Origin: Escherichia phage HP3.2
Reading direction: 5' to 3' (one strand)
Sequence record: OP978391.1
DNA length: 64,000 nt
A program made the position numbers and the translations under genes. Of this stretch, positions 12,684-43,047 are shown one piece after another. The notes under the pieces were generated by a model. The model saw only the letters and a program-made list of their open reading frames with translations, did not search any database and had not been told where the DNA came from. The stretch's first letter is position 1, and each line of letters opens with the position of its first letter.

Positions 12684-14497
12684 TGGTGTTTAACCCTATG
12701 CATGATTTCTTTATTTTTACCGAGATTAAATCCGCGTTCGTTCGGGTTTCCCAAATAACCGCATGTTCTTCTTATTGTGTTCATCTTTTTAGGATCAGTT
12801 TCTCCACAAATAGAACAAACAAACCCGTTTTCAGTAGGAGTCATTTCATGGGTACTTCCACACGTAAAACATTTATCTACTGGCATATTAACACCAAAAT
12901 AATCTAAATGTTGTGCAGCATAATCCCATACAGCCTCAAGACCTTTTAAGTTATTTTTCATATCAGGAAGTTCAACATAAGAAATGTGACCACCTGTTGC
13001 AATGAAATGATACGGGGCTTCGCGAGAAATCTTTTCAAACGGAGTAATATTTTCTTCTACTGAAACATGGAAACTGTTAGTGTACCAGCCTTTATCAGTA
13101 ACATCCTTTACACTTCCATATTTTTCTGTATCAAGTTTACAGAAGCGATAGCAAAGGTTTTCAGCAGGAGTAGAATACAAGCTAAAAGCAAACCCAGTTC
13201 TTTCAGTCCACTGTTTAAGACGAGCATTCATTTTAGTTAAAATTTCCTGTCCAATATCACGACCGACAAGAATATTCAATTCGTGAATACCAATGTATCC
13301 TAAAGACACTGAACTTCTACCATTTTTAAATAACTCAATTATATCGTCATCAGGTTTAAGACGAACCCCGAATGCACCTTCTTGGTAAAGAATAGGAGCA
13401 ACAGTCGCTTTAACTCCTTTTAAGGAACTAATTCTACACATCAAAGCTTCAAAACATAAATCCATTCGCTCATTGAATAATTTAACAAATTTCTGTTCAT
13501 TGAACTGTGTTCCAATATAAGAATCCAACGCAATACGAGGAAGATTCAGTGTTACAACACCAAGATTATTACGTCCATCAAGAATTTCATTACCAGTCGA
13601 ATCTTTCCATACGCTCAAGAAACTACGGCAACCCATTGGAGAAACAGGAACAGATGAACCAGTGATAGCTTTATTGTTCTTAGCTGAAATAATATCAGGA
13701 TACATCCTTTTGCTTGCACACTCTAGAGCAAGCTGCTTAATATCATAGTTCGGATCGTCTTTATAAAGATTAACACCTTCTTCAACAAACATAACAAGCT
13801 TAGGGAAAATAGGAGTTATCCCATCACGACCAAGACCTTTAATACGATTTTTCAGAATTGCTTTCTGAATCATTCGTTCAGTCCAGTCAGTTCCCGTACC
13901 AAATGTAATTGTTACAAAAGGTGTTTGTCCGTTTGAACTAAAGAGAGTATTTACTTCATATTCATAAGCTTGGAATGCATCGTATACGTCTTTTTCTGTT
14001 TTAGATTGAGCATAATTCAACGCATCAGCGATTTGCCATTTTTCTGCATCCTCAATATGTTTTGCATATGTGCGTTTAACATAAGGAGAAAGTACTTTAT
14101 CTACATTCGCAAAAGTCGTTCCGCCATATTGATGGGAAGCAACCTGTGCAGTAATTTGTGCCATAATTGCAGTAGCAACACCGATTGATTTAGGAGTTTC
14201 AATCTGCGCATTACCAAGCTTAAATCCGTTCTCAAGCATTCCTTTTAAATCTACTAAACAACAATTAGTAAATGGAAGAGCAGGGGAATAATCAATATCA
14301 TGGAAATGAATAATTCCGCTTTCATGCGCTTTCATAATAAAAGACGGGACCATATTTTTGGCAATGTGTTTAGACACAATACCAGCCATAAGGTCCCGTT
14401 GAGTTGGAAAAACACGAGAATCTTTATTAGCATTCTCGTTCAAAAGGTCTTTATTAGTTTTATGAATCAATCCTTCAATTTCTTTTTCAATTGTCAT
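12680..14497 (-). CDS. nrdD: Anaerobic ribonucleoside-triphosphate reductase NrdD, uninterrupted
   Basis: Continuous 605-aa ORF MTIEKEIEGLIHKTNKDLL... with C-terminal glycyl-radical region and CxxC pairs. Confidence 0.9.
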   Translation of the reverse strand: MTIEKEIEGLIHKTNKDLLNENANKDSRVFPTQRDLMAGIVSKHIAKNMVPSFIMKAHESGIIHFHDIDYSPALPFTNCCLVDLKGMLENGFKLGNAQIETPKSIGVATAIMAQITAQVASHQYGGTTFANVDKVLSPYVKRTYAKHIEDAEKWQIADALNYAQSKTEKDVYDAFQAYEYEVNTLFSSNGQTPFVTITFGTGTDWTERMIQKAILKNRIKGLGRDGITPIFPKLVMFVEEGVNLYKDDPNYDIKQLALECASKRMYPDIISAKNNKAITGSSVPVSPMGCRSFLSVWKDSTGNEILDGRNNLGVVTLNLPRIALDSYIGTQFNEQKFVKLFNERMDLCFEALMCRISSLKGVKATVAPILYQEGAFGVRLKPDDDIIELFKNGRSSVSLGYIGIHELNILVGRDIGQEILTKMNARLKQWTERTGFAFSLYSTPAENLCYRFCKLDTEKYGSVKDVTDKGWYTNSFHVSVEENITPFEKISREAPYHFIATGGHISYVELPDMKNNLKGLEAVWDYAAQHLDYFGVNMPVDKCFTCGSTHEMTPTENGFVCSICGETDPKKMNTIRRTCGYLGNPNERGFNLGKNKEIMHRVKHQ

Positions 14498-33286: not shown

Positions 33287-33703
33287 TTAAATGTAAATAT
33301 TTTTGCCGTAATACTTATACCAGTGTGGCTTCATTAAAATTTTTTCATCGAGTCGTTGTTGACTCAACTTAATAGCTGATTTGCATGGATTATAATCATT
33401 TTTCCATTCTACTGGAATATCGCTGATGTCAGGAACTTCAGTATCTTTTATACTGAACCCGCGTTTTAAGCATTCCGTTATAATGTCCGATTGACGCTTT
33501 CGCAAAAATTCTAACTTATCGTAAAAGAAAGTAACATGACCAGAACCTAAAATAAATTTAGAAGATATTTTAAAATCTTTAACGCGCTTACCGTTTGCCA
33601 CATGCTTACGAACTATACCAAAAACACGCGGCAATTCACGGTATTCTGCGATTAAATGTTGATCAGCAAGTTCAGATACTAAAGTCAAATTAATACGAGT
33701 CAT
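33287..33703 (-). CDS. denV: Endonuclease V (pyrimidine-dimer DNA glycosylase)
   Basis: 138-aa [32 protein letters not shown]...; matches T4 DenV from memory. Confidence 0.9.
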
Positions 33704-33762: not shown

Positions 33763-34293
<531 letters not shown>

Positions 34294-35578: not shown

Positions 35579-35973
35579 CGTGATTCCTTAACAAATTTCA
35601 TAATTTCATCAAATTCATACGCAGCAAGTTTAAGCTGATGTTCCTTTTTAATCTTTTTACACTGTGCTTTCCAATCACGTACGCGTTTACGATAATGCCT
35701 TCCTTGATACCAGTATCCTACCCAATTTACGGGTACTAATAAAAGTGGAACTATTAATGGAAGAATTAGCATTAACACAAGTATTTCGCCAGAATCAATA
35801 TCAGTCATAACATCTAAAACACCTCCAATAATCAATAGAATTACAAATGATATGAGTATAACAGGACCTATTAACACATCAGTAGAAATTATCTGACGCT
35901 TTAATTCATACTTCAACGGTTTACTTGGAAGGTATAGTGATGGCTTTGACATATTCTCTACATTCCTTAACAA
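35560..35973 (-). CDS. Membrane protein in tandem array
   Basis: 137-aa ORF with two hydrophobic segments; ends MKFVKESRCKSQN. Confidence 0.5.
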   Translation of the reverse strand: MLRNVENMSKPSLYLPSKPLKYELKRQIISTDVLIGPVILISFVILLIIGGVLDVMTDIDSGEILVLMLILPLIVPLLLVPVNWVGYWYQGRHYRKRVRDWKAQCKKIKKEHQLKLAAYEFDEIMKFVKESRCKSQN

Positions 35974-36529
35974 ATTTTTCTAGTAATAAATCACTTTCAA
36001 AATTGGGATTTTCTACAAATTTATCAAAAAGATCATCAACAATAGTTAAGATATTCTTTTTACTAAGAATACGTTTATTTTCATGCTTCGTTTCAGAATC
36101 AACTATAAGAGTAAAGAAATATTTCTTGCCCTGAAATTTTACAGTAGTATCAATATAAAATAAATTTGACTTTTGTAAATTACGTTTAAACCATGCGTCA
36201 CTTAAACTATAAACACCGAGATAATCAAAATCGTCGTTTAAATAACAAACCGTCCATTCAGGAGAAATGAAATCAGTAAATTCAACATCAAAATCACACG
36301 TCAATGAATGAATTGATTCAATACTGTTAATGAGTATTCCAGGACGTATTAAAGACTTTTTACCTCTAGAAAATCTTCCGGAAAGGCTTTCATCAGTTTC
36401 ATATGAAGACCCCCAATAGTAATTACGTCCTTCTGCCATGCGTTTAAGAGCATTTAGTAATTGGTCTGGAACATCAACCTGTCTTTGAAACTCTTCAAAC
36501 ATTGAATTGAAATCACTTTGCATTTTCAT
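35921..36529 (-). CDS. Hypothetical protein in tandem array
   Basis: 202-aa ORF; ends EKFVKECREYVKAITIPSK. Confidence 0.5.
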   Translation of the reverse strand: MKMQSDFNSMFEEFQRQVDVPDQLLNALKRMAEGRNYYWGSSYETDESLSGRFSRGKKSLIRPGILINSIESIHSLTCDFDVEFTDFISPEWTVCYLNDDFDYLGVYSLSDAWFKRNLQKSNLFYIDTTVKFQGKKYFFTLIVDSETKHENKRILSKKNILTIVDDLFDKFVENPNFESDLLLEKFVKECREYVKAITIPSK

Positions 36530-36548
36530 TCCTATTTACTCCAAGTAA

Positions 36549-36568
36549 TAGGGGCCCGAAGCCCCTTA
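36549..36568 (-). terminator. GC-rich stem-loop (GGGGCTTCGGGCCCC)
   Basis: Hairpin directly after the stop of ORF 36572..37165. Confidence 0.45.
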
Positions 36569-36571
36569 TCA

Positions 36572-37165
36572 TTATTTCAGAGAATTAATATATTCCTGAA
36601 CATCGGCAGAGGTAGTTTCAACCCCAGAAATATTACCATTAAAGGTTTCAACTCGAGCAAGAGTATCTTCAATATCAACCTTAGTCAGTGCTGCAATTTC
36701 AACTACATCATCAGCAGTACTAATTCCAAGGGCATTCGCTGCACGAGTTTCACGGATATATTCCAATTTAACCGCAAGTTCTTGACGAGCATCATCTAAC
36801 TCAACTACTTTCTTGGCGATTTCAATTCGCATTTCAGCATAACCGTCAGCCTTAGTAGTCAACTGCTCAGCTGTTCGACGATATAGTAAACCGAGTTTAG
36901 CATGCATTGTTACATCTTGGCCTTCGGAAAGAAGTTTACGAATTTCACGCTCTTTTGATTCGGCCTGTCGATTCTTTTCGATAACAAGTTCACGAATACG
37001 TTTTTCTTCGTTAATAGATTTAACAGAAGCAGTTTTTAGATCTTTAATTTTATCAAGTAGTTTTGCTGCTGCAGCAGTATACTGTTCTTCGACAGATAGA
37101 TTTTTAGCCATAGCAGAACCAAGTTTAGTGCGAATAAACTCAACAATTTTCTTCAGTGTGTTCAT
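36572..37165 (-). CDS. PspA/IM30-like coiled-coil protein
   Basis: 197-aa heptad-rich ORF; segment [11 protein letters not shown] resembles PspA VDDTLARMK. Confidence 0.45.
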
Positions 37166-37266
37166 AGTATTTCCTTAGGTTAATTGAGATTTAAAATCCG
37201 TAGGAGTATAATACTCTATCGTCAAATTATAGGCTCATAATATCTCAATCATGAGCCTGCGTAAAC

Positions 37267-37530
37267 TTATTTCATATTATTGAAATATTCTTCTGCGATT
37301 TCGTCGTTATCATGGTAAACTTTAGAAGACAGTTTAACATAACCTTCTGCTGTGAACATATTAATCACAACTTTTACAGTATACCACTGACCGTCTTCAT
37401 TACCCATTACTGCGTAAGTTTCAAACATCGGATGATCAGGACCGATAACTTTAATATCATTCACTGTACGACCGAAATCTTCTGAAACGCATTTCATAAA
37501 GAAGTTGAACAGTTCGCCGTAATTATCCAT
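37267..37530 (-). CDS. Hypothetical protein
   Basis: Start taken at MDNYGELFNFF after GGAGAATGAA (the ORF-track N-terminal extension crosses a promoter). Confidence 0.45.
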   Translation of the reverse strand: MDNYGELFNFFMKCVSEDFGRTVNDIKVIGPDHPMFETYAVMGNEDGQWYTVKVVINMFTAEGYVKLSSKVYHDNDEIAEEYFNNMK

Positions 37531-37561
37531 TTCATTCTCCAAGTTGTTTTCTGTATCAGTA

Positions 37562-37603
37562 GTTGATAGTTGTATAGTACCATGGAAGAACAGAGATGTA
37601 AAC
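37562..37603 (-). promoter_or_regulatory. T4-type early promoter (conserved cassette)
   Basis: Minus strand reads GTTTAC, 18 nt, then GGTACTATACAACTATCAAC. Confidence 0.5.
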
Positions 37604-37725
37604 AGTTTTGTGAAAAAATTTTTAGGGAATTCTAGGGCAGGGATGGGCAATTAAAGGATAGGATAATATATTATAAAGGGTATAAACTAAATGATGCCTA
37701 GAGAGGTCCAGAAAGGCCTAGATAC

Positions 37726-37751
37726 CAAAAAGCCCTATCATTTAGATAGGG
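37726..37751 (-). terminator. Rho-independent terminator
   Basis: Minus strand reads CCCTATCTAAATGATAGGG followed by CTTTTT, after the stop of ORF 37760..38323. Confidence 0.55.
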
Positions 37752-37759
37752 ATTTAAAA

Positions 37760-38323
37760 TTATTTACCTAGTTTACTTATTATAGCTTCTGCAGCAGCTT
37801 TTAGCTTAGATGCAGTGTTAATACGATTTTTAATTTCAGTATACGCATCGCCAAGAACATCAAGGCTATCAGAATAAACACTTACACTATTGCGTTCGCT
37901 ATTTGAAATAGAACCTTTAGTTTTGCGGTCAAAATCGGTGTACACGTCTTGAAGATCGCGGGCTGCCTTCTTTGCATCATCCAATGCATCAAGAGCTTTA
38001 TTCAAAGCATTAACGTATTTTTTAGTGTCGAACATATTCTTAGAAATTTTAACAGGTGCGCGTTCAGGAGTAGCTAACACAGATTTAGGAACCTGAGCGC
38101 CAGATGCCAATTTCTTAGAAATTTTGAAAAATGCTTTATTGAATTTATTTTCTTGACTCATTGTAAAAGAACTATTATCGATGTTGTACATTTCAATAGC
38201 TTTAGCTTTCCACTTAAGAAAATCGCCGCGGTCTTTTGGGTCCAATTGGAAGAATACTTTAGTAAGATCTGCTTCAGATGGTAATTTTGCTGCTTCGGTT
38301 AAAAATTCGGCATAGGTTTTCAT
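37760..38323 (-). CDS. Internal-protein-like protein with capsid-targeting N-terminus
   Basis: 187-aa ORF starting MKTYAEFLTE, which resembles the T4 internal-protein capsid-targeting sequence MKTYQEFIAE with an LxE cleavage site. Confidence 0.6.
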   Translation of the reverse strand: MKTYAEFLTEAAKLPSEADLTKVFFQLDPKDRGDFLKWKAKAIEMYNIDNSSFTMSQENKFNKAFFKISKKLASGAQVPKSVLATPERAPVKISKNMFDTKKYVNALNKALDALDDAKKAARDLQDVYTDFDRKTKGSISNSERNSVSVYSDSLDVLGDAYTEIKNRINTASKLKAAAEAIISKLGK

Positions 38324-38413
38324 TTAAAATCCTTGAAATAATTTATCGGTTGGTTATTAATTATTTATTACTTTGTTACTATCCGTAACAGCGTTATCCG
38401 AGTGATTCAAACT

Positions 38414-38444
38414 AAAAAGCCCCAACCTTTCGGTCGGGGCTAAG
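38414..38444 (-). terminator. Rho-independent terminator (repeat copy 1)
   Basis: Minus strand reads GCCCCGACCGAAAGGTTGGGGC followed by TTTTT; 31-nt sequence identical to 38971..39001. Confidence 0.6.
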
Positions 38445-38448
38445 AATG

Positions 38449-38922
38449 TCATTTGATTTGTTTAGCAGACCAAATGCGGTCTTTAATAATTTTTTGGATG
38501 TCTTCAACATACTCAAGAGAGTGAACATGTGGATTATCTTTGAAACTATAAGCACGGGCTAACTTTTGGCCTTCGGTTTTGATTACTAAAAGCTCTTTAA
38601 GGATAGCTTCATATTTAGCGATAATTCCTTTAACGATATTTTTTTCTTGTGCCGCTTTAGGATCTGCTTTAGGAGCAGGTTTACCCGAAGCCTTTGCAAA
38701 AGCAGCGCCAGTAGCAACTAAACTTTTCCAGGCCATACTAACTGCATTTCCCGTAAATCCTTCCGCTTTCATGTCGCGTGCAAACTGGAATCGCGATTCA
38801 TCAGAAGCATCTTTATAGGAATATTTACCCGCGGCAATGGCAGCTTTTGCAACAGCTTGAATTTCGGTGCTAGATGCTTCATTTAACACCGCTTCATTTA
38901 AAAATTGAGTATATGATTTCAT
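38449..38922 (-). CDS. Internal-protein-like protein with capsid-targeting N-terminus
   Basis: Start taken at MKSYTQFLNE (157 aa) after AGGAAA; Ala/Lys-rich body; the longer track ORF crosses the promoter and terminator. Confidence 0.55.
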   Translation of the reverse strand: MKSYTQFLNEAVLNEASSTEIQAVAKAAIAAGKYSYKDASDESRFQFARDMKAEGFTGNAVSMAWKSLVATGAAFAKASGKPAPKADPKAAQEKNIVKGIIAKYEAILKELLVIKTEGQKLARAYSFKDNPHVHSLEYVEDIQKIIKDRIWSAKQIK

Positions 38923-38950
38923 CTTATTTCCTATTTTAATTTGTAGATTT

Positions 38951-38970
38951 AATATACTAATATTTATACC
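38951..38970 (-). promoter_or_regulatory. T4 late promoter (TATAAATA) for the 38449..38922 gene
   Basis: Minus strand reads GGTATAAATATTAG, with TATAAATA about 40 nt upstream of the ATG. Confidence 0.55.
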
Positions 38971-39001
38971 AAAAAGCCCCAACCTTTCGGTCGGGGCTAA
39001 G
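38971..39001 (-). terminator. Rho-independent terminator (repeat copy 2)
   Basis: Identical 31-nt hairpin plus U-tract as at 38414..38444. Confidence 0.6.
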
Positions 39002-39039
39002 CCTTGCGGCAACCTTGTCGGGGTTCCACCTGCTAAGGC

Positions 39040-39300
39040 AAGTGTTTGTACGAAACGCCGGGATTCGAACCCGGTTATTAAGTAGTTGACGCTACTCAAT
39101 ATTTTTAAAAGGCCATATCTCGACCATATCCGAACGTTCCGTCAAAAACGCTACTCGGCTTACGGCAAAGATATTTCCTCGAATCGATAATTCGGTGCGC
39201 CGTTTCTGCTGTGATAGTAAAGAGCCAGAACACAGTAAAACTGTGGGAGGAAACTATACTCCAGGGAACATCAGTCCGACGACTTACCGGTAGCGACCCG
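39040..39300 (-). ncRNA. Candidate structured non-coding RNA
   Basis: About 260 nt with no ORF on either strand, locally GC-richer, several stem-loops including a tRNA T-arm-like hairpin CCGGGTTCGAATCCCGG; bounded 3' by the 38971..39001 terminator. Confidence 0.35.
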
Positions 39301-39305
39301 GTTTC

Positions 39306-39656
39306 TTAATATTCTTTTAAAGAATCAATATATTCACGGCGTTTACGCCACAAATCAATTGCTTCATACGCGGATTCAGCATTTCGAATTAGCCGGCATT
39401 TATGTAAAGACTTATGATTTTGATATTGTGTAGATAACGGAATTGTATCTAAAAGGTCTTTACGATCAAAATATTTGTAACCATCTAAACCAAATGAACG
39501 ATTTTTGAGAAATTGCCAATGACCATATTCGTTTTCGACATAAACATAATCTGCATGCTGATAAAGCAAATTAATTACACGTTCAGAAATAACAGTATCA
39601 TTATGATTAAAATAGAATGTTAAATCATGAACTACTAAATAAACATTACCTTTCAT
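39306..39656 (-). CDS. Hypothetical protein
   Basis: 116-aa ORF immediately 3' of the tRNA array. Confidence 0.5.
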   Translation of the reverse strand: MKGNVYLVVHDLTFYFNHNDTVISERVINLLYQHADYVYVENEYGHWQFLKNRSFGLDGYKYFDRKDLLDTIPLSTQYQNHKSLHKCRLIRNAESAYEAIDLWRKRREYIDSLKEY

Positions 39657-39664
39657 ATTTTCCT

Positions 39665-39740
39665 CACTTATAATTGGTCGAGGCAGTAGGGATCGAACCT
39701 ACGACCTAGGACTTAGAAGGTCCTTGCTCTTCCTTCTGAG
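39665..39740 (-). tRNA. tRNA-Arg (anticodon UCU)
   Basis: 76-nt cloverleaf folded by hand: acceptor CGGGGCA/TGCCTCG, anticodon loop CUUCUAA, T-loop GGTTCGATCC, encoded CCA. Confidence 0.8.
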
Positions 39741-39744
39741 CTAT

Positions 39745-39820
39745 GCCCCGTAATTGGGGTGACCGATGGGAGTCGAACCCATGACTACGAGAATCACAAT
39801 CTCGAGTTCTACCAACTGAA
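39745..39820 (-). tRNA. tRNA-His (anticodon GUG)
   Basis: 76 nt: acceptor GTGGCCG/CGGTCAC, discriminator C, anticodon loop UUGUGAU, T-loop GGTTCGACTCC, encoded CCA. Confidence 0.7.
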
Positions 39821-39944
39821 CTACGGCCACATTAATACCTACTCCAACAATCAAGATGTCTTCACACGAAATTAAGAGAAGAGTGATCAGTTCAACCCCT
39901 ATAATCGCGTCAAGTAGATATTAATGTGACAGTTGTCACAAATT

Positions 39945-40019
39945 TGGCGGACGTGATAGGATTCGAACCTATAACCAATCGCTTAACAGGCGATCGCTCT
40001 GCCATTGAGCTACACATCC
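39945..40019 (-). tRNA. tRNA-Asn (anticodon GUU)
   Basis: 75 nt: acceptor GGATGTG/CACGTCC, anticodon stem ATCGC/GCGAT, loop CUGUUAA, T-loop GGTTCGAATCC, encoded CCA. Confidence 0.7.
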
Positions 40020-40023
40020 AAAT

Positions 40024-40110
40024 TGGTGGGGAGTGGTGGAGTCGAACCACCCGAGTCGCAATGACAATGAATTTACAGTCCACACCGCTACCTCTACGGG
40101 ATAACTCCCC
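40024..40110 (-). tRNA. tRNA-Tyr (anticodon GUA), long variable arm
   Basis: 87 nt: acceptor GGGGAGT/ACTCCCC, anticodon loop CUGUAAA, variable arm resembling E. coli tRNA-Tyr, T-arm GGTGGTTCGACTCCACC, encoded CCA. Confidence 0.65.
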
Positions 40111-40119
40111 AAATTAATT

Positions 40120-40194
40120 TGGTGGCCCTGGGTGGAATTGAACCACCATCTGGCGATTATGAGTCGCTTGCTTGAACCTTCCAGCTACAGGGCC
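40120..40194 (-). tRNA. tRNA with CAU anticodon (Ile2-lysidine type or Met)
   Basis: 75 nt: acceptor GGCCCTG/CAGGGCC, anticodon loop CUCAUAA, T-loop GGTTCAATTCC; sits where T4 has tRNA-Ile. Confidence 0.7.
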
Positions 40195-40195
40195 T

Positions 40196-40271
40196 TGGTG
40201 CTGATTGACGGAATCGAACCGCCGACCTTCTCATTACAAGTGAGTTGCTCTACCTACTGAGCTAAATCAGC
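40196..40271 (-). tRNA. tRNA-Thr (anticodon UGU)
   Basis: 76 nt: acceptor GCTGATT/AATCAGC, anticodon loop CUUGUAA, encoded CCA. Confidence 0.8.
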
Positions 40272-40276
40272 AAAAC

Positions 40277-40366
40277 TGGCGGAGGCGATAGGATTTGAAC
40301 CTATGAGTCGCCGGAGCGACTGCCGGTTTTCAAGACCGGTGCATTAAACCACTCTGCCACGCCTCC
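40277..40366 (-). tRNA. tRNA-Ser (anticodon UGA), long variable arm
   Basis: 90 nt; sequence GGAGGCGTGGCAGAGTGGTTTAATGCACCGGTCTTGAAAACCGG... matches T4 tRNA-Ser from memory. Confidence 0.85.
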
Positions 40367-40368
40367 AG

Positions 40369-40442
40369 TCTCCGTGGCAGGATTTGAACCTACGACATTC
40401 TGCTCCCAAAGCAGACGCTCTACCAAACTGAGCTACACGGAG
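40369..40442 (-). tRNA. tRNA-Pro (anticodon UGG), CCA not encoded
   Basis: 74 nt: acceptor CTCCGTG/CACGGAG, anticodon loop UUUGGGA; ends 2 nt before tRNA-Ser with no CCA (Pro-Ser dimeric precursor layout). Confidence 0.8.
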
Positions 40443-40452
40443 TAAATTAAAT

Positions 40453-40526
<74 letters not shown>

Positions 40527-40531
40527 AAATT

Positions 40532-40618
40532 TGGTGCGAGAAGTGGGACTCGAACCCACAAGGAAATCATTCCGCAGCATTTTAAGTGCTGTGCCTTTAC
40601 CAATTTGGCCATTCTCGC
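40532..40618 (-). tRNA. tRNA-Leu (anticodon UAA), long variable arm
   Basis: 87 nt GCGAGAATGGCCAAATTGGTAAAGGCACAGCACTTAAAATGCTGCGG...; matches T4 tRNA-Leu from memory. Confidence 0.85.
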
Positions 40619-40619
40619 G

Positions 40620-40692
40620 CTGGGAATAAAGGACTCGAACCTTTGCATCCTGGAATCAAAATCCAGTGCCTTACCAACTTGGCTAATTCCCA
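40620..40692 (-). tRNA. tRNA-Gln (anticodon UUG), CCA not encoded
   Basis: 73 nt: acceptor TGGGAAT/ATTCCCA, anticodon loop UUUUGAU; abuts tRNA-Leu with a 1-nt spacer (Gln-Leu dimer layout). Confidence 0.8.
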
Positions 40693-40789
40693 ATTATTAA
40701 CAAAGGCTCTTAAGCAAGAACCCTTGATGATAGAGGGTATTAATCAGTGCGATATGAGTTAATAATAACAAATAATTCTTAAAGCATAT

Positions 40790-41077
40790 TTACCATTTAT
40801 AATAATACATATTTACGATGCATTCAAGACCCAAAGGATTCTTGAAAATATCATATTCAAGAGGACCTTTTTCTGTTTCAATAAAGAAATCAAAATTTAC
40901 TGTATTAAATTTACGTTCTTCCTTCACTAATTTAACTTGAGAAGATGAACGGTCAATGTAAACCTTTTCAACTTCAAAACATGTTAAAATGCCATAATCA
41001 TCAATCAAAGCTTTAGCCGCGTCTTGATCATATTTATATCCATTTTCAATGGATGATACTTTCGCATAAAGAATCAT
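40790..41077 (-). CDS. Hypothetical protein
   Basis: 95-aa ORF 5' of the tRNA array. Confidence 0.45.
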   Translation of the reverse strand: MILYAKVSSIENGYKYDQDAAKALIDDYGILTCFEVEKVYIDRSSSQVKLVKEERKFNTVNFDFFIETEKGPLEYDIFKNPLGLECIVNMYYYKW

Positions 41078-41079
41078 TA

Positions 41080-41478
41080 TCAGCCTTCATCAACAATAGT
41101 GTGAGTATTAGCATTTACGATTTGCCACCAATCAAAGCGATTAGAATCCATCGGTTTGTTTTCATTTTCTTTGATAATGTCACGGAGTTCATCTTCAGAG
41201 AATGCTTTAGCAATTAAATCGGTATACCCACCACGGGGATAATAATTATCACCTGCAAACAAAAGGAAATTTACCTTCCCGGAAGCAACATATGCTTCCT
41301 TAGGATACTTGTTTCCTGCGTGGTCAACCACTTCAATATAACGGTAAGGAATATCGGTTCTTTCAACCCATTGCCATGCCGCCGCAGGGGAATCGAAAGC
41401 ATCTACACCTAAACGATTATCTTCATCTTTAGACGGATTATTTTCGTAATCCGCATATACATAATATTCAACGTTCAT
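41080..41478 (-). CDS. Hypothetical protein
   Basis: 132-aa ORF. Confidence 0.5.
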   Translation of the reverse strand: MNVEYYVYADYENNPSKDEDNRLGVDAFDSPAAAWQWVERTDIPYRYIEVVDHAGNKYPKEAYVASGKVNFLLFAGDNYYPRGGYTDLIAKAFSEDELRDIIKENENKPMDSNRFDWWQIVNANTHTIVDEG

Positions 41479-41680: not shown

Positions 41681-41721
41681 TAGATAGGGTAATAGTATCA
41701 CTACCCTATCTAAAAGTAAAC
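41681..41721 (-). promoter_or_regulatory. Early promoter overlapped by a stem-loop
   Basis: Minus strand reads GTTTAC, spacer, then TACTAT, lying within inverted repeat AGATAGGGTA...TACCCTATCT. Confidence 0.45.
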
Positions 41722-41955
41722 TTATTTTTTACGAAAAATTGATTTATTTTCTGCTGCCCATTTTTCAATAACTGCAGCAGGACCAGTAACAACAATTTTA
41801 TCACCGTAATCTTCTGCGGCGAGTTGACCGAAATTATCTAATGCATCACGAAGAACTCCATGAGGCATTTCACCCATTTTATCTTTCTTGCCAATGTAAA
41901 TAAACTCAACTTTTACATCAGCAGTTTCAGCAATAAATTCTTGGTAAGTTTTCAT
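41722..41955 (-). CDS. Internal-protein-like protein with capsid-targeting N-terminus (ipI-locus type)
   Basis: Start at MKTYQEFIAE, identical to the T4 internal-protein capsid-targeting sequence as recalled; 77 aa. Confidence 0.65.
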   Translation of the reverse strand: MKTYQEFIAETADVKVEFIYIGKKDKMGEMPHGVLRDALDNFGQLAAEDYGDKIVVTGPAAVIEKWAAENKSIFRKK

Positions 41956-41980
41956 TTTGATTTCCATTTGGTTTTGTTTT

Positions 41981-42019
41981 GATAAGGTAATAGTATCACA
42001 ACTAAAACCCTATGTAAAC
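41981..42019 (-). promoter_or_regulatory. Early promoter overlapped by a stem-loop
   Basis: Minus strand reads GTTTAC, 18 nt, then TACTAT, with a flanking inverted repeat. Confidence 0.45.
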
Positions 42020-42031
42020 AACTTTGTGAAA

Positions 42032-42289
42032 TTATTTTAAATCTTCTAATCGTTTCTTCATCTTAGAACCATTTTTAGCAATTTCTCCTGCATCGGAGCA
42101 TAATGCTAAAAGTGCTTTAACTTTAGTTTGGTCTCCTTTAAAAGATGAAGGATCGACCGCAGCAGCAAGTTCTTTAATACGAGAGAAAAGACGCTCAGCT
42201 TCAGCTAAAGCCATTCCAAGCTTTACTTCCATACCGTGGGAAGATTCAGTGATAGTAGTTTTTGTAGCAAACTCTTTGAAAGTTTTCAT
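42032..42289 (-). CDS. Internal-protein-like protein with capsid-targeting N-terminus
   Basis: 85-aa ORF starting MKTFKEFATKTTITE. Confidence 0.55.
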   Translation of the reverse strand: MKTFKEFATKTTITESSHGMEVKLGMALAEAERLFSRIKELAAAVDPSSFKGDQTKVKALLALCSDAGEIAKNGSKMKKRLEDLK

Positions 42290-42310
42290 TTTTATTTTCC
42301 TAATTAATTT

Positions 42311-42350
42311 TGATGAGGTAATAGTATCACTACCTCATCAGTATGTAAAC
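42311..42350 (-). promoter_or_regulatory. Early promoter overlapped by a stem-loop
   Basis: Minus strand reads GTTTAC, 18 nt, then TACTAT; inverted repeat TGATGAGGTA...TACCTCATCA spans spacer and -10. Confidence 0.5.
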
Positions 42351-42362
42351 AACTTTGTGAAA

Positions 42363-43047
<685 letters not shown>

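Follow-up and report, generated by a model that had tools for sequence, protein, structure and literature searches.

Two leader-bearing genes between rnaC and e.8 of Escherichia phage HP3.2 as probable internal head proteins at a third T-even locus

Escherichia phage HP3.2 carries, in the 64,000-nt stretch of sequence record OP978391.1 analysed here (the window, within which all positions are counted), two neighbouring open reading frames (ORFs) that lie between the rnaC terminator and gene e.8 and are referred to below as gene A and gene B. The two products probably belong to a single family of internal head proteins of the T-even type, within which they have diverged; the family corresponds to PHROG 2280, and each of the two genes stands in a cassette of its own. 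What is new is an unannotated member family of a known kind, the T-even internal proteins (IPs), at a previously undescribed third locus. IP genes have been described at two loci only, 57B/trna.4 and denV/e, and stated to be absent elsewhere (Arbiol et al. 2010, PMC2839356). Genes A and B lie outside both, which shows that IP cassettes also occur away from the two textbook loci; the restriction to these two is a trait of the literature description, not of the IP mechanism. For injected anti-restriction factors of T-even phages, the internal proteins are the best source at present, and with the unlabelled family two more candidates become available for testing in phages of the therapy type, such as HP3.

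A 2.6-kb query from the window (37000-39600) is 100% identical to the Tequatrovirus Escherichia phage HP3; the region has matches in 771 phage records, the gene B family being found in 511 of them and the gene A family in 164. Judged by its sequence, the source phage is itself a Tequatrovirus. The relatives compared include T4, RB14, RB32, RB51, RB69, phiD1, D5505, Bas37, and ten IMG/VR loci reached via e.8.

Leader peptides and the protein family

Gene A (37760..38323, minus strand) encodes a protein of 187 aa starting with MKTYAEFLTEAAK, and gene B (38449..38922, minus strand) a protein of 157 aa starting with MKSYTQFLNEAVLNE; both ORFs named in the earlier note exist. For the gene A protein, identity is 98% with RB14ncORF136c and 100% with bas37_0243, while the gene B protein shares 100% identity with bas37_0244, 98% with phiD1 g140, and 96% with RB32ORF133c. 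The first ten codons of gene A (38294..38323, minus strand) encode MKTYAEFLTE with the cleavage motif L8-T-E10, and those of gene B (38893..38922, minus strand) encode MKSYTQFLNE with the motif L8-N-E10, in both cases followed by Ala; the gene B protein bears a second L-N-E motif, L13-N-E15, which ends at residue 15 and is again followed by Ala. Cleavage after residue 10 would leave mature proteins of 177 and 147 aa, each with an isoelectric point (pI) of 9.5, which resembles that of Ip2, Ip3, Ip4, and Ip7.

The significance of these N-termini follows from what is known of IPIII, whose first 10 residues alone suffice to package foreign proteins in T4. Residues 4 and 7 of this leader control targeting, and residues 8 and 10 control cleavage by the prohead protease gp21, which cuts after L/I-x-E, with Glu and not Asp at leader position 10 (PMC9026906). 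All the critical residues (the aromatic Y4 and F7, L8, and E10) are present in both A and B, and the two leaders align with 13 annotated IP leaders (T4 ipI-III, RB14 Ip4/Ip5, RB32 Ip7/Ip9, and RB69), which bears out the earlier comparison with the T4 capsid-targeting sequence MKTYQEFIAE. A leader regular expression run on all six frames of the 64 kb gave three matches, and all of them are IP-type gene starts, namely A, B, and a gene at 41722..41955. Moreover, Y/F4, F7, L8, and E10 are kept across genera in relatives of down to 25-31% identity (the database proteins P0026, P0020, and P0021 and a 205-aa variant from locus L015). As for the virion itself, the gene B orthologue g140 of phiD1 has been found particle-associated in an LC-MS/MS analysis, in contrast to its neighbour e.8 (PMC8309999 Table S3). 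It is quite likely that A and B are both packaged internal proteins processed by gp21.

Beyond the leaders, the family relationship has been examined by profile comparisons with hhalign, with the leader on and off, and by BLASTP on the mature domains. Both proteins match PHROG 2280 (“unknown function”) over their full length, with E-values of 2e-53 for A (1-181) and 2.3e-60 for B (1-157), as does the 205-aa variant (5.8e-60). When A and B are compared directly by BLASTP or hhalign, the leader aligns and nothing more. The 205-aa variant (L015:3260-3877) and P0026, however, align over the whole length with both, with an hhalign probability of 97% for each; after removal of the leaders, the 205-aa variant still scores 95% against A (134 columns) and 90% against B (96 columns). 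In control comparisons of A-family profiles (A3, A4) with IPIII and of a B-family profile (A2) with Ip4, only the leader aligns. It is concluded that A and B are distant paralogues as far as profile comparison can tell, with scores possibly inflated by low-complexity or coiled-coil segments. No relative in sequence or fold was found outside the family, in agreement with the earlier statement that the mature parts are unrelated to any recognised protein, but the two are not unrelated to each other, since the 205-aa variant and PHROG 2280 link them.

AlphaFold2 (AF2) models suggest a common layout for the two proteins, in which the leader is followed by a small helical domain, a linker, and a long helical hairpin. 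The model of the gene B protein is all-helical (pLDDT 75), and that of the gene A protein (pLDDT 60) consists of an N-terminal helical domain, a disordered linker, and a long helical hairpin; the linker is rich in Pro, Lys, and Ala in the gene B protein and the 205-aa variant. No sequence profile of the PDB matches A or B, and Pfam and NCBIfam yield sub-threshold matches only for A and none for B. An exhaustive HMMER search with gene A against 1.84 billion representatives revealed one real distant relative, P0026. The mature domains give no BLASTP match among characterised IP inhibitors, and outside the leader they show no similarity in sequence or fold to IPI*, Ip2, Ip3, or Ip4; identification of gene B as Ip4, suggested by the equal length of 157 aa, was rejected for this lack of similarity. 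Ip1-5, Ip7, Ip9, and the 77-aa protein encoded at 41722..41955 belong to a separate PHROG each, labelled “internal protein”, whereas no database labels A or B in this way, and GenBank has “hypothetical” throughout among the matches listed. In a full-text literature search by leader peptides and RB-phage ORF names, no paper mentioning A or B was found, a mention in Repoila 1994 or Comeau 2007 being possible.

Among the known IPs, T4 IPIII and IPII provide the closest comparison. They share with A and B the MKTYxEF[IL]xE type of leader, 10 residues long and with Ala after it, as well as the processing by gp21, residence with the DNA, and ejection that are to be expected for A and B; mature IPIII and mature A are also alike in size (183 vs 177 aa) and pI (9.7 vs 9.5). 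IPIII is present in about 370 copies per head, and its loss raises polyheads, which points to a morphogenetic side of its function (PMC9026906). The differences are that nothing is similar past the leader, that the locus is denV/e instead of rnaC/e.8, and that IPIII is dispensable in T4 while gene A has been called essential in Bas37 (see below). Polymorphic T-even IPs (Ip4-Ip13), as reported from Repoila et al. 1994 by later papers (PMC12373910, PMC3012670, PMC2839356), resemble A and B in having unrelated mature domains behind a conserved leader, and their genes likewise form cassettes flanked by repeated promoter and terminator sequences and variable among close relatives. They differ in occupying the two known loci and in having their own PHROGs labelled as internal protein, in contrast to the third locus and common PHROG 2280 of A and B. 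Finally, the McrBC inhibitor Bas37_0260 and the GmrSD inhibitor IPI* are leader-bearing proteins from the same phage type, but their mature parts are of about 67-76 aa and unrelated in sequence, they are dispensable on permissive hosts, and their targets have been demonstrated.

The rnaC/e.8 locus and its cassettes

In T4, the rnaC terminator is directly followed by GGTATCTAAGCC and e.8, with no gene between, and therefore the 1.2 kb at 37752-38965 of the window is a two-cassette insertion. The upstream edge of cassette B is the rnaC terminator itself (38971-38997, minus strand), which ends the tRNA-rnaD-rnaC unit and has a 10-bp stem, a GAAA loop, and a T-tract (GCCCCGACC-GAAA-GGTTGGGGC-TTTTT); T4 has it once, at the same site. 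A second exact copy of this terminator (38414-38440, minus strand) closes cassette B and opens cassette A, and no such pair of 27-nt copies (GCCCCGACCGAAAGGTTGGGGCTTTTT) is expected by chance. Cassette A is closed by a third terminator (stem 37733-37751, element 37723..37751, minus strand), CCCTATC-TAAAT-GATAGGG followed by CTTTTT, which is weaker, the D5505 annotation giving -10.4 kcal/mol for it and -18.3 kcal/mol for the rnaC type. It is followed by GGTATCTAGGCC, as is the rnaC terminator in T4, and this marks the downstream edge of the insertion; the early promoter of e.8 comes after 37723, and e.8 itself occupies 37267..37530 on the minus strand. The earlier note had the pair of genes bracketed by identical terminators. 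Identical copies do surround gene B, but they do not flank the pair, because the terminator after gene A has a different sequence.

Directly after the T-tract of the rnaC terminator stands a consensus T4 late promoter, TATAAATA (38961-38968, minus strand), 38 nt before the gene B ATG. Gene A is preceded by a late-promoter-like octamer, AATAAATA (38362-38369, minus strand), which matches the consensus in 7 of 8 positions; the spacing to the ATG is exactly 38 nt in both cases. In relatives, the octamer before gene A is GATAAATA in RB14 and AATAAATA in RB69 and locus L013. By these features, AATAAATA may act as the promoter of gene A. The octamer TATAAATA is not enriched in the 64 kb (12 found vs 11.3 expected), and its use as statistical evidence was rejected, the count being at chance level. 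Support for the late promoter comes instead from position and conservation: TATAAATA keeps its place in four diverged B-type cassettes (phiD1, RB32, L010, and L015), while the neighbouring bases vary. Late expression, assumed earlier for both genes, thus has a consensus promoter behind it for gene B and a near-consensus one for gene A.

The cassettes are combined differently among relatives. Cassette A is found alone in RB14 and RB69, cassette B alone and between two terminator copies in RB32, RB51, and phiD1, and cassettes B and A together in HP3, D5505, and Bas37; in RB32, the annotation marks a “34 bp imperfect direct repeat” around cassette B. Each of the ten e.8-bearing IMG/VR loci has at least one family member at the rnaC/e.8 site, and these loci include gene B alleles of 153-157 aa as well as the 205-aa variant; diverged gene B alleles share 70-82% identity. 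A distant gene B homologue occupies the same position in a Klebsiella Jiaodavirus. Since both the IMG/VR loci and the relatives are occupied, T4, empty there, is the exception. The rnaC/e.8 site is probably a third locus of internal proteins, which is vacant in T4 but filled in most of the relatives examined. The earlier note was correct in placing the genes at a non-T4 location, since T4 has only the rnaC terminator at the insertion point, and also in describing the canonical denV/e interval as devoid of IP genes in HP3.2: denV (33293-33703) adjoins e (33766-34257), with no ipII, ipIII, or Ip4 between them in the window.

Two variants at this locus deserve a comment. In RB69 (NC_004928; L003), the annotation splits the gene A orthologue (13429-13991) into two overlapping ORFs, 148c and 149c, on account of one deleted base; since the frame downstream of it is otherwise intact, a sequencing error of one base is probable, and the interpretation as a pseudogene was rejected. 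In a Logan contig, a 94-aa chimeric protein (P0024) joins the N-terminus of trna.3 (41080-41478 in the window) to the 30 C-terminal residues of gene B, which implies that a natural deletion took out the entire tRNA cluster together with most of gene B.

According to the explanation proposed here, a cassette would consist of a terminator, a late promoter, a gene, and a terminator, with the rnaC terminator on one side of the insertion and the e.8 promoter on the other. Whole cassettes could be gained or lost through recombination between the repeated terminator and the GGTAT joints, and such recombination would produce the arrangements none, A, B, and B plus A. Following the T4 IPIII paradigm, the precursors of A and B would be made late in infection, docked by their first 10 residues (Y4, F7) into the prohead's scaffolding core of gp22, and cut by gp21 after L8-x-E10, so that a basic (pI 9.5) and helical mature protein could remain with the packaged DNA and be ejected with it into the next host.

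Upstream of the canonical IP genes stand an AT-rich hairpin and a promoter of the early type, and TATAAATA does not occur within 90 nt, in contrast to the strong GC-rich terminator and late promoter of A and B. The closest functional parallel to the locus is provided by the PeSL cassettes of RB49 and phi1 (PMC2839356), where a module of stem-loop and promoter is also repeated around accessory genes, serving both for transcriptional insulation and as a substrate for homologous recombination that adds or deletes whole genes. PeSL promoters, however, are of the sigma-70-like early type, while the module of A and B is the strong rnaC terminator fused to the T4 late promoter (TTTTTGGTATAAATA). The repeated stem-loop is present, yet the promoter is of the T4 late type, and the locus does not belong to the PeSL class; the resemblance is functional.

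Transposon data and the function of A and B

Phage Bas37 (MZ501089) has the same locus, with bas37_0243 and bas37_0244 identical (100%) to A and B, and its genes have been surveyed by transposon sequencing (Tn-seq) as TA sites hit in a reference library (bioRxiv 10.1101/2025.11.20.689424, Extended Data Table 7, from which the values below are taken). Gene A is called “Essential”, with 1 of 48 TA sites hit and a mean of 0.2 reads, while the genes around it average about 400-600 reads and are non-essential: gene B with 29 of 34 sites hit, e.8 (bas37_0242) with 23 of 23, and bas37_0245 with 33 of 38. In the main text of the preprint, bas37_0243 goes unmentioned. Because K-12 without McrA, McrBC, and Mrr served as the host for selection of the library, a target in K-12 type IV restriction cannot explain the loss of gene A insertions.

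These data allow the tentative reading, which still falls somewhat short of being probable, that gene A is the first capsid-targeted IP a T-even phage cannot lose. It would replace IPII, IPIII, or Ip4 in the large HP3/Bas37/RB14 lineage and be required either as a head-core or DNA-organising factor or as a counter to some K-12 function, with PHROG 2280 at rnaC/e.8 as a third IP locus that was overlooked because T4 is empty there. The window and D5505 are without ipII, ipIII, and Ip4, and at least one large basic IP (IPIII, Ip4, or A) is present in the genomes examined, with the exception of RB69, where the copy of A bears the probable sequencing error, in a sample too small to prove redundancy. 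Of the two roles, it is more likely that gene A encodes a core or DNA-associated protein that has grown important in genomes without ipII, ipIII, and Ip4. Gene A would be needed for HP3/Bas37-type propagation on K-12, its product most likely acting as a major basic protein of the core or associated with the DNA, in the IPIII/IPII/Ip4 role; neutralisation of a K-12 function other than McrA, McrBC, and Mrr seems less likely. The gene B protein would be a dispensable accessory IP that probably serves in host range or counter-defence, against a target, if any, that the strains tested may lack. If the essentiality of gene A is true, it would show that head assembly or infection can come to depend on injected passengers, which would be relevant to the engineering of T4-like phages and to leader-based cargo packaging.

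Several points weigh against these interpretations. For gene A, packaging, processing, and ejection are predictions; its promoter octamer is one base off the consensus, and its AF2 model is of low confidence. Searches with the AF2 models by Foldseek against PDB and BFVD returned self matches only, that is, no structural relatives of A or B. The virion evidence for gene B is weak, because the phiD1 particle list is very broad and takes in 113-137 of 277 phage proteins (about 40-49%), dNMP kinase included (PMC8309999). An essential IP would be unprecedented, since every T4 internal protein is individually dispensable, and gene A is not universally required, being naturally absent from RB32, RB51, phiD1, and T4. 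Furthermore, according to the preprint data, the same Tn-seq method called six T4 genes (hoc, inh, segE, uvsW, segC, and wac) essential, contrary to classical genetics, so that the call for gene A could be due to the toxicity of truncated products or to some local effect.

The latter point leads to an explanation that is plausible without reaching the level of probable, namely, that the “Essential” call is a technical or dominant-negative artefact and gene A is a dispensable accessory IP like B and T4 Ip1-3. Apart from the six mis-called genes, for which the authors of the screen cite locus-dependent effects, it agrees with the many viable relatives that are without gene A, and truncated leader-bearing fragments might conceivably poison the prohead core. 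However, in Bas37 the counterparts of the mis-called hoc, inh, segE, and uvsW lie together in a single uninterrupted block (bas37_0015-0018), whereas A is isolated between the fully tolerant genes e.8 and B. Truncations of B and of T4 ipI, ipII, and ipIII, with the same kind of leader, are tolerated, and the depletion of gene A matches that of structural genes in depth.

It is rather unlikely, though by no means negligible, that A and B are injected anti-defence effectors, as the earlier note proposed, for example inhibitors of type IV restriction of the GmrSD or McrBC type, and have no structural role. Every T-even IP of known function is an inhibitor of type IV restriction: a different GmrSD is the target of each of Ip1, Ip2, and Ip3 (PMC12373910), the targets of Ip2 and Ip3 having been assigned in 2025, and Bas37_0260, which is 99% identical to the product of 41722..41955, blocks McrBC according to the 2025 preprint (bioRxiv 10.1101/2025.11.20.689424). 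The variable presence of the cassettes and the divergence of gene B alleles would also fit an arms race. On the other hand, the fitness values tabulated in the preprint for gene B insertions reveal no conditional effect on three clinical strains relative to K-12 (log2 fold change of -0.11 on CFT073, -0.30 on CFE299, and -0.14 on CFE303). The loss of gene A insertions even on K-12 without its type IV systems is unlike what is known of IP anti-restriction factors, and both proteins resemble IPI*, Ip2, Ip3, and Ip4 in nothing except the leader. An anti-defence role of A and B is not supported by the data so far, and for gene A a role in head assembly is no less likely.

As to the view that the leader-like N-termini are recombination relics and that A and B act unpackaged in the infected cell late in infection, it can appeal to a leader of only 10 residues and to virion data that cover the gene B orthologue and not A, but it is very improbable given the conservation of the leader across genera, the detection of the gene B orthologue in phiD1 virion preparations, and the packaging of foreign proteins by the IPIII leader.

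Neighbouring genes

The canonical ipI locus of the window (41683-42378) is built of repeated modules of about 70 nt, with an AT-rich hairpin (GATAGGGTAATAGTATCACTACCCTATC) and an early-type promoter, GTTTACA...TACTAT, flanking each IP gene. The 77-aa protein encoded there (41722-41955, minus strand) starts with MKTYQEFIAE followed by TADVK; its assignment to T4 ipI was rejected, as the mature part differs and matches Bas37_0260. Next to it, adjoining 57B, lies a fourth leader-bearing gene, Ip5 (42032-42289, minus strand; MKTFKEFATK), which is 100% identical to RB14 Ip5 and bas37_0261. In the tabulated Bas37 Tn-seq data, disruption of Ip5 lowers fitness on the uropathogenic strain CFT073 (log2 fold change -2.09, adjusted p about 0), which hints at a host-specific role not discussed in the preprint.

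Upstream of the cassettes, the rnaD and rnaC homologues (about 39003-39306, minus strand) are 91% identical to those of T4; an Rfam search over 36500-41000 detected tRNAs only and no family for these homologues. Between rnaD and tRNA-Arg, where T4 has no gene, lies a 116-aa ORF (39306..39656, minus strand) of PHROG 3355, similar to RB69ORF150c, whose Bas37 counterpart is the non-essential gene with 33 of 38 sites hit. The tRNA cluster (39675-40692, minus strand) has no segB homing endonuclease and comprises eleven tRNA genes vs eight in T4, the extra ones being His, Asn, and Tyr.

On the other side of the locus, the orthologues of T4 e.5 (35921-36529, minus strand; bas37_0239) and e.6 (36572-37165, minus strand; bas37_0240) are strongly conditionally required on CFT073 in the tabulated Bas37 Tn-seq data, with log2 fold changes of -3.62 and -6.49, respectively, and the e.6 orthologue is particle-associated in phiD1.

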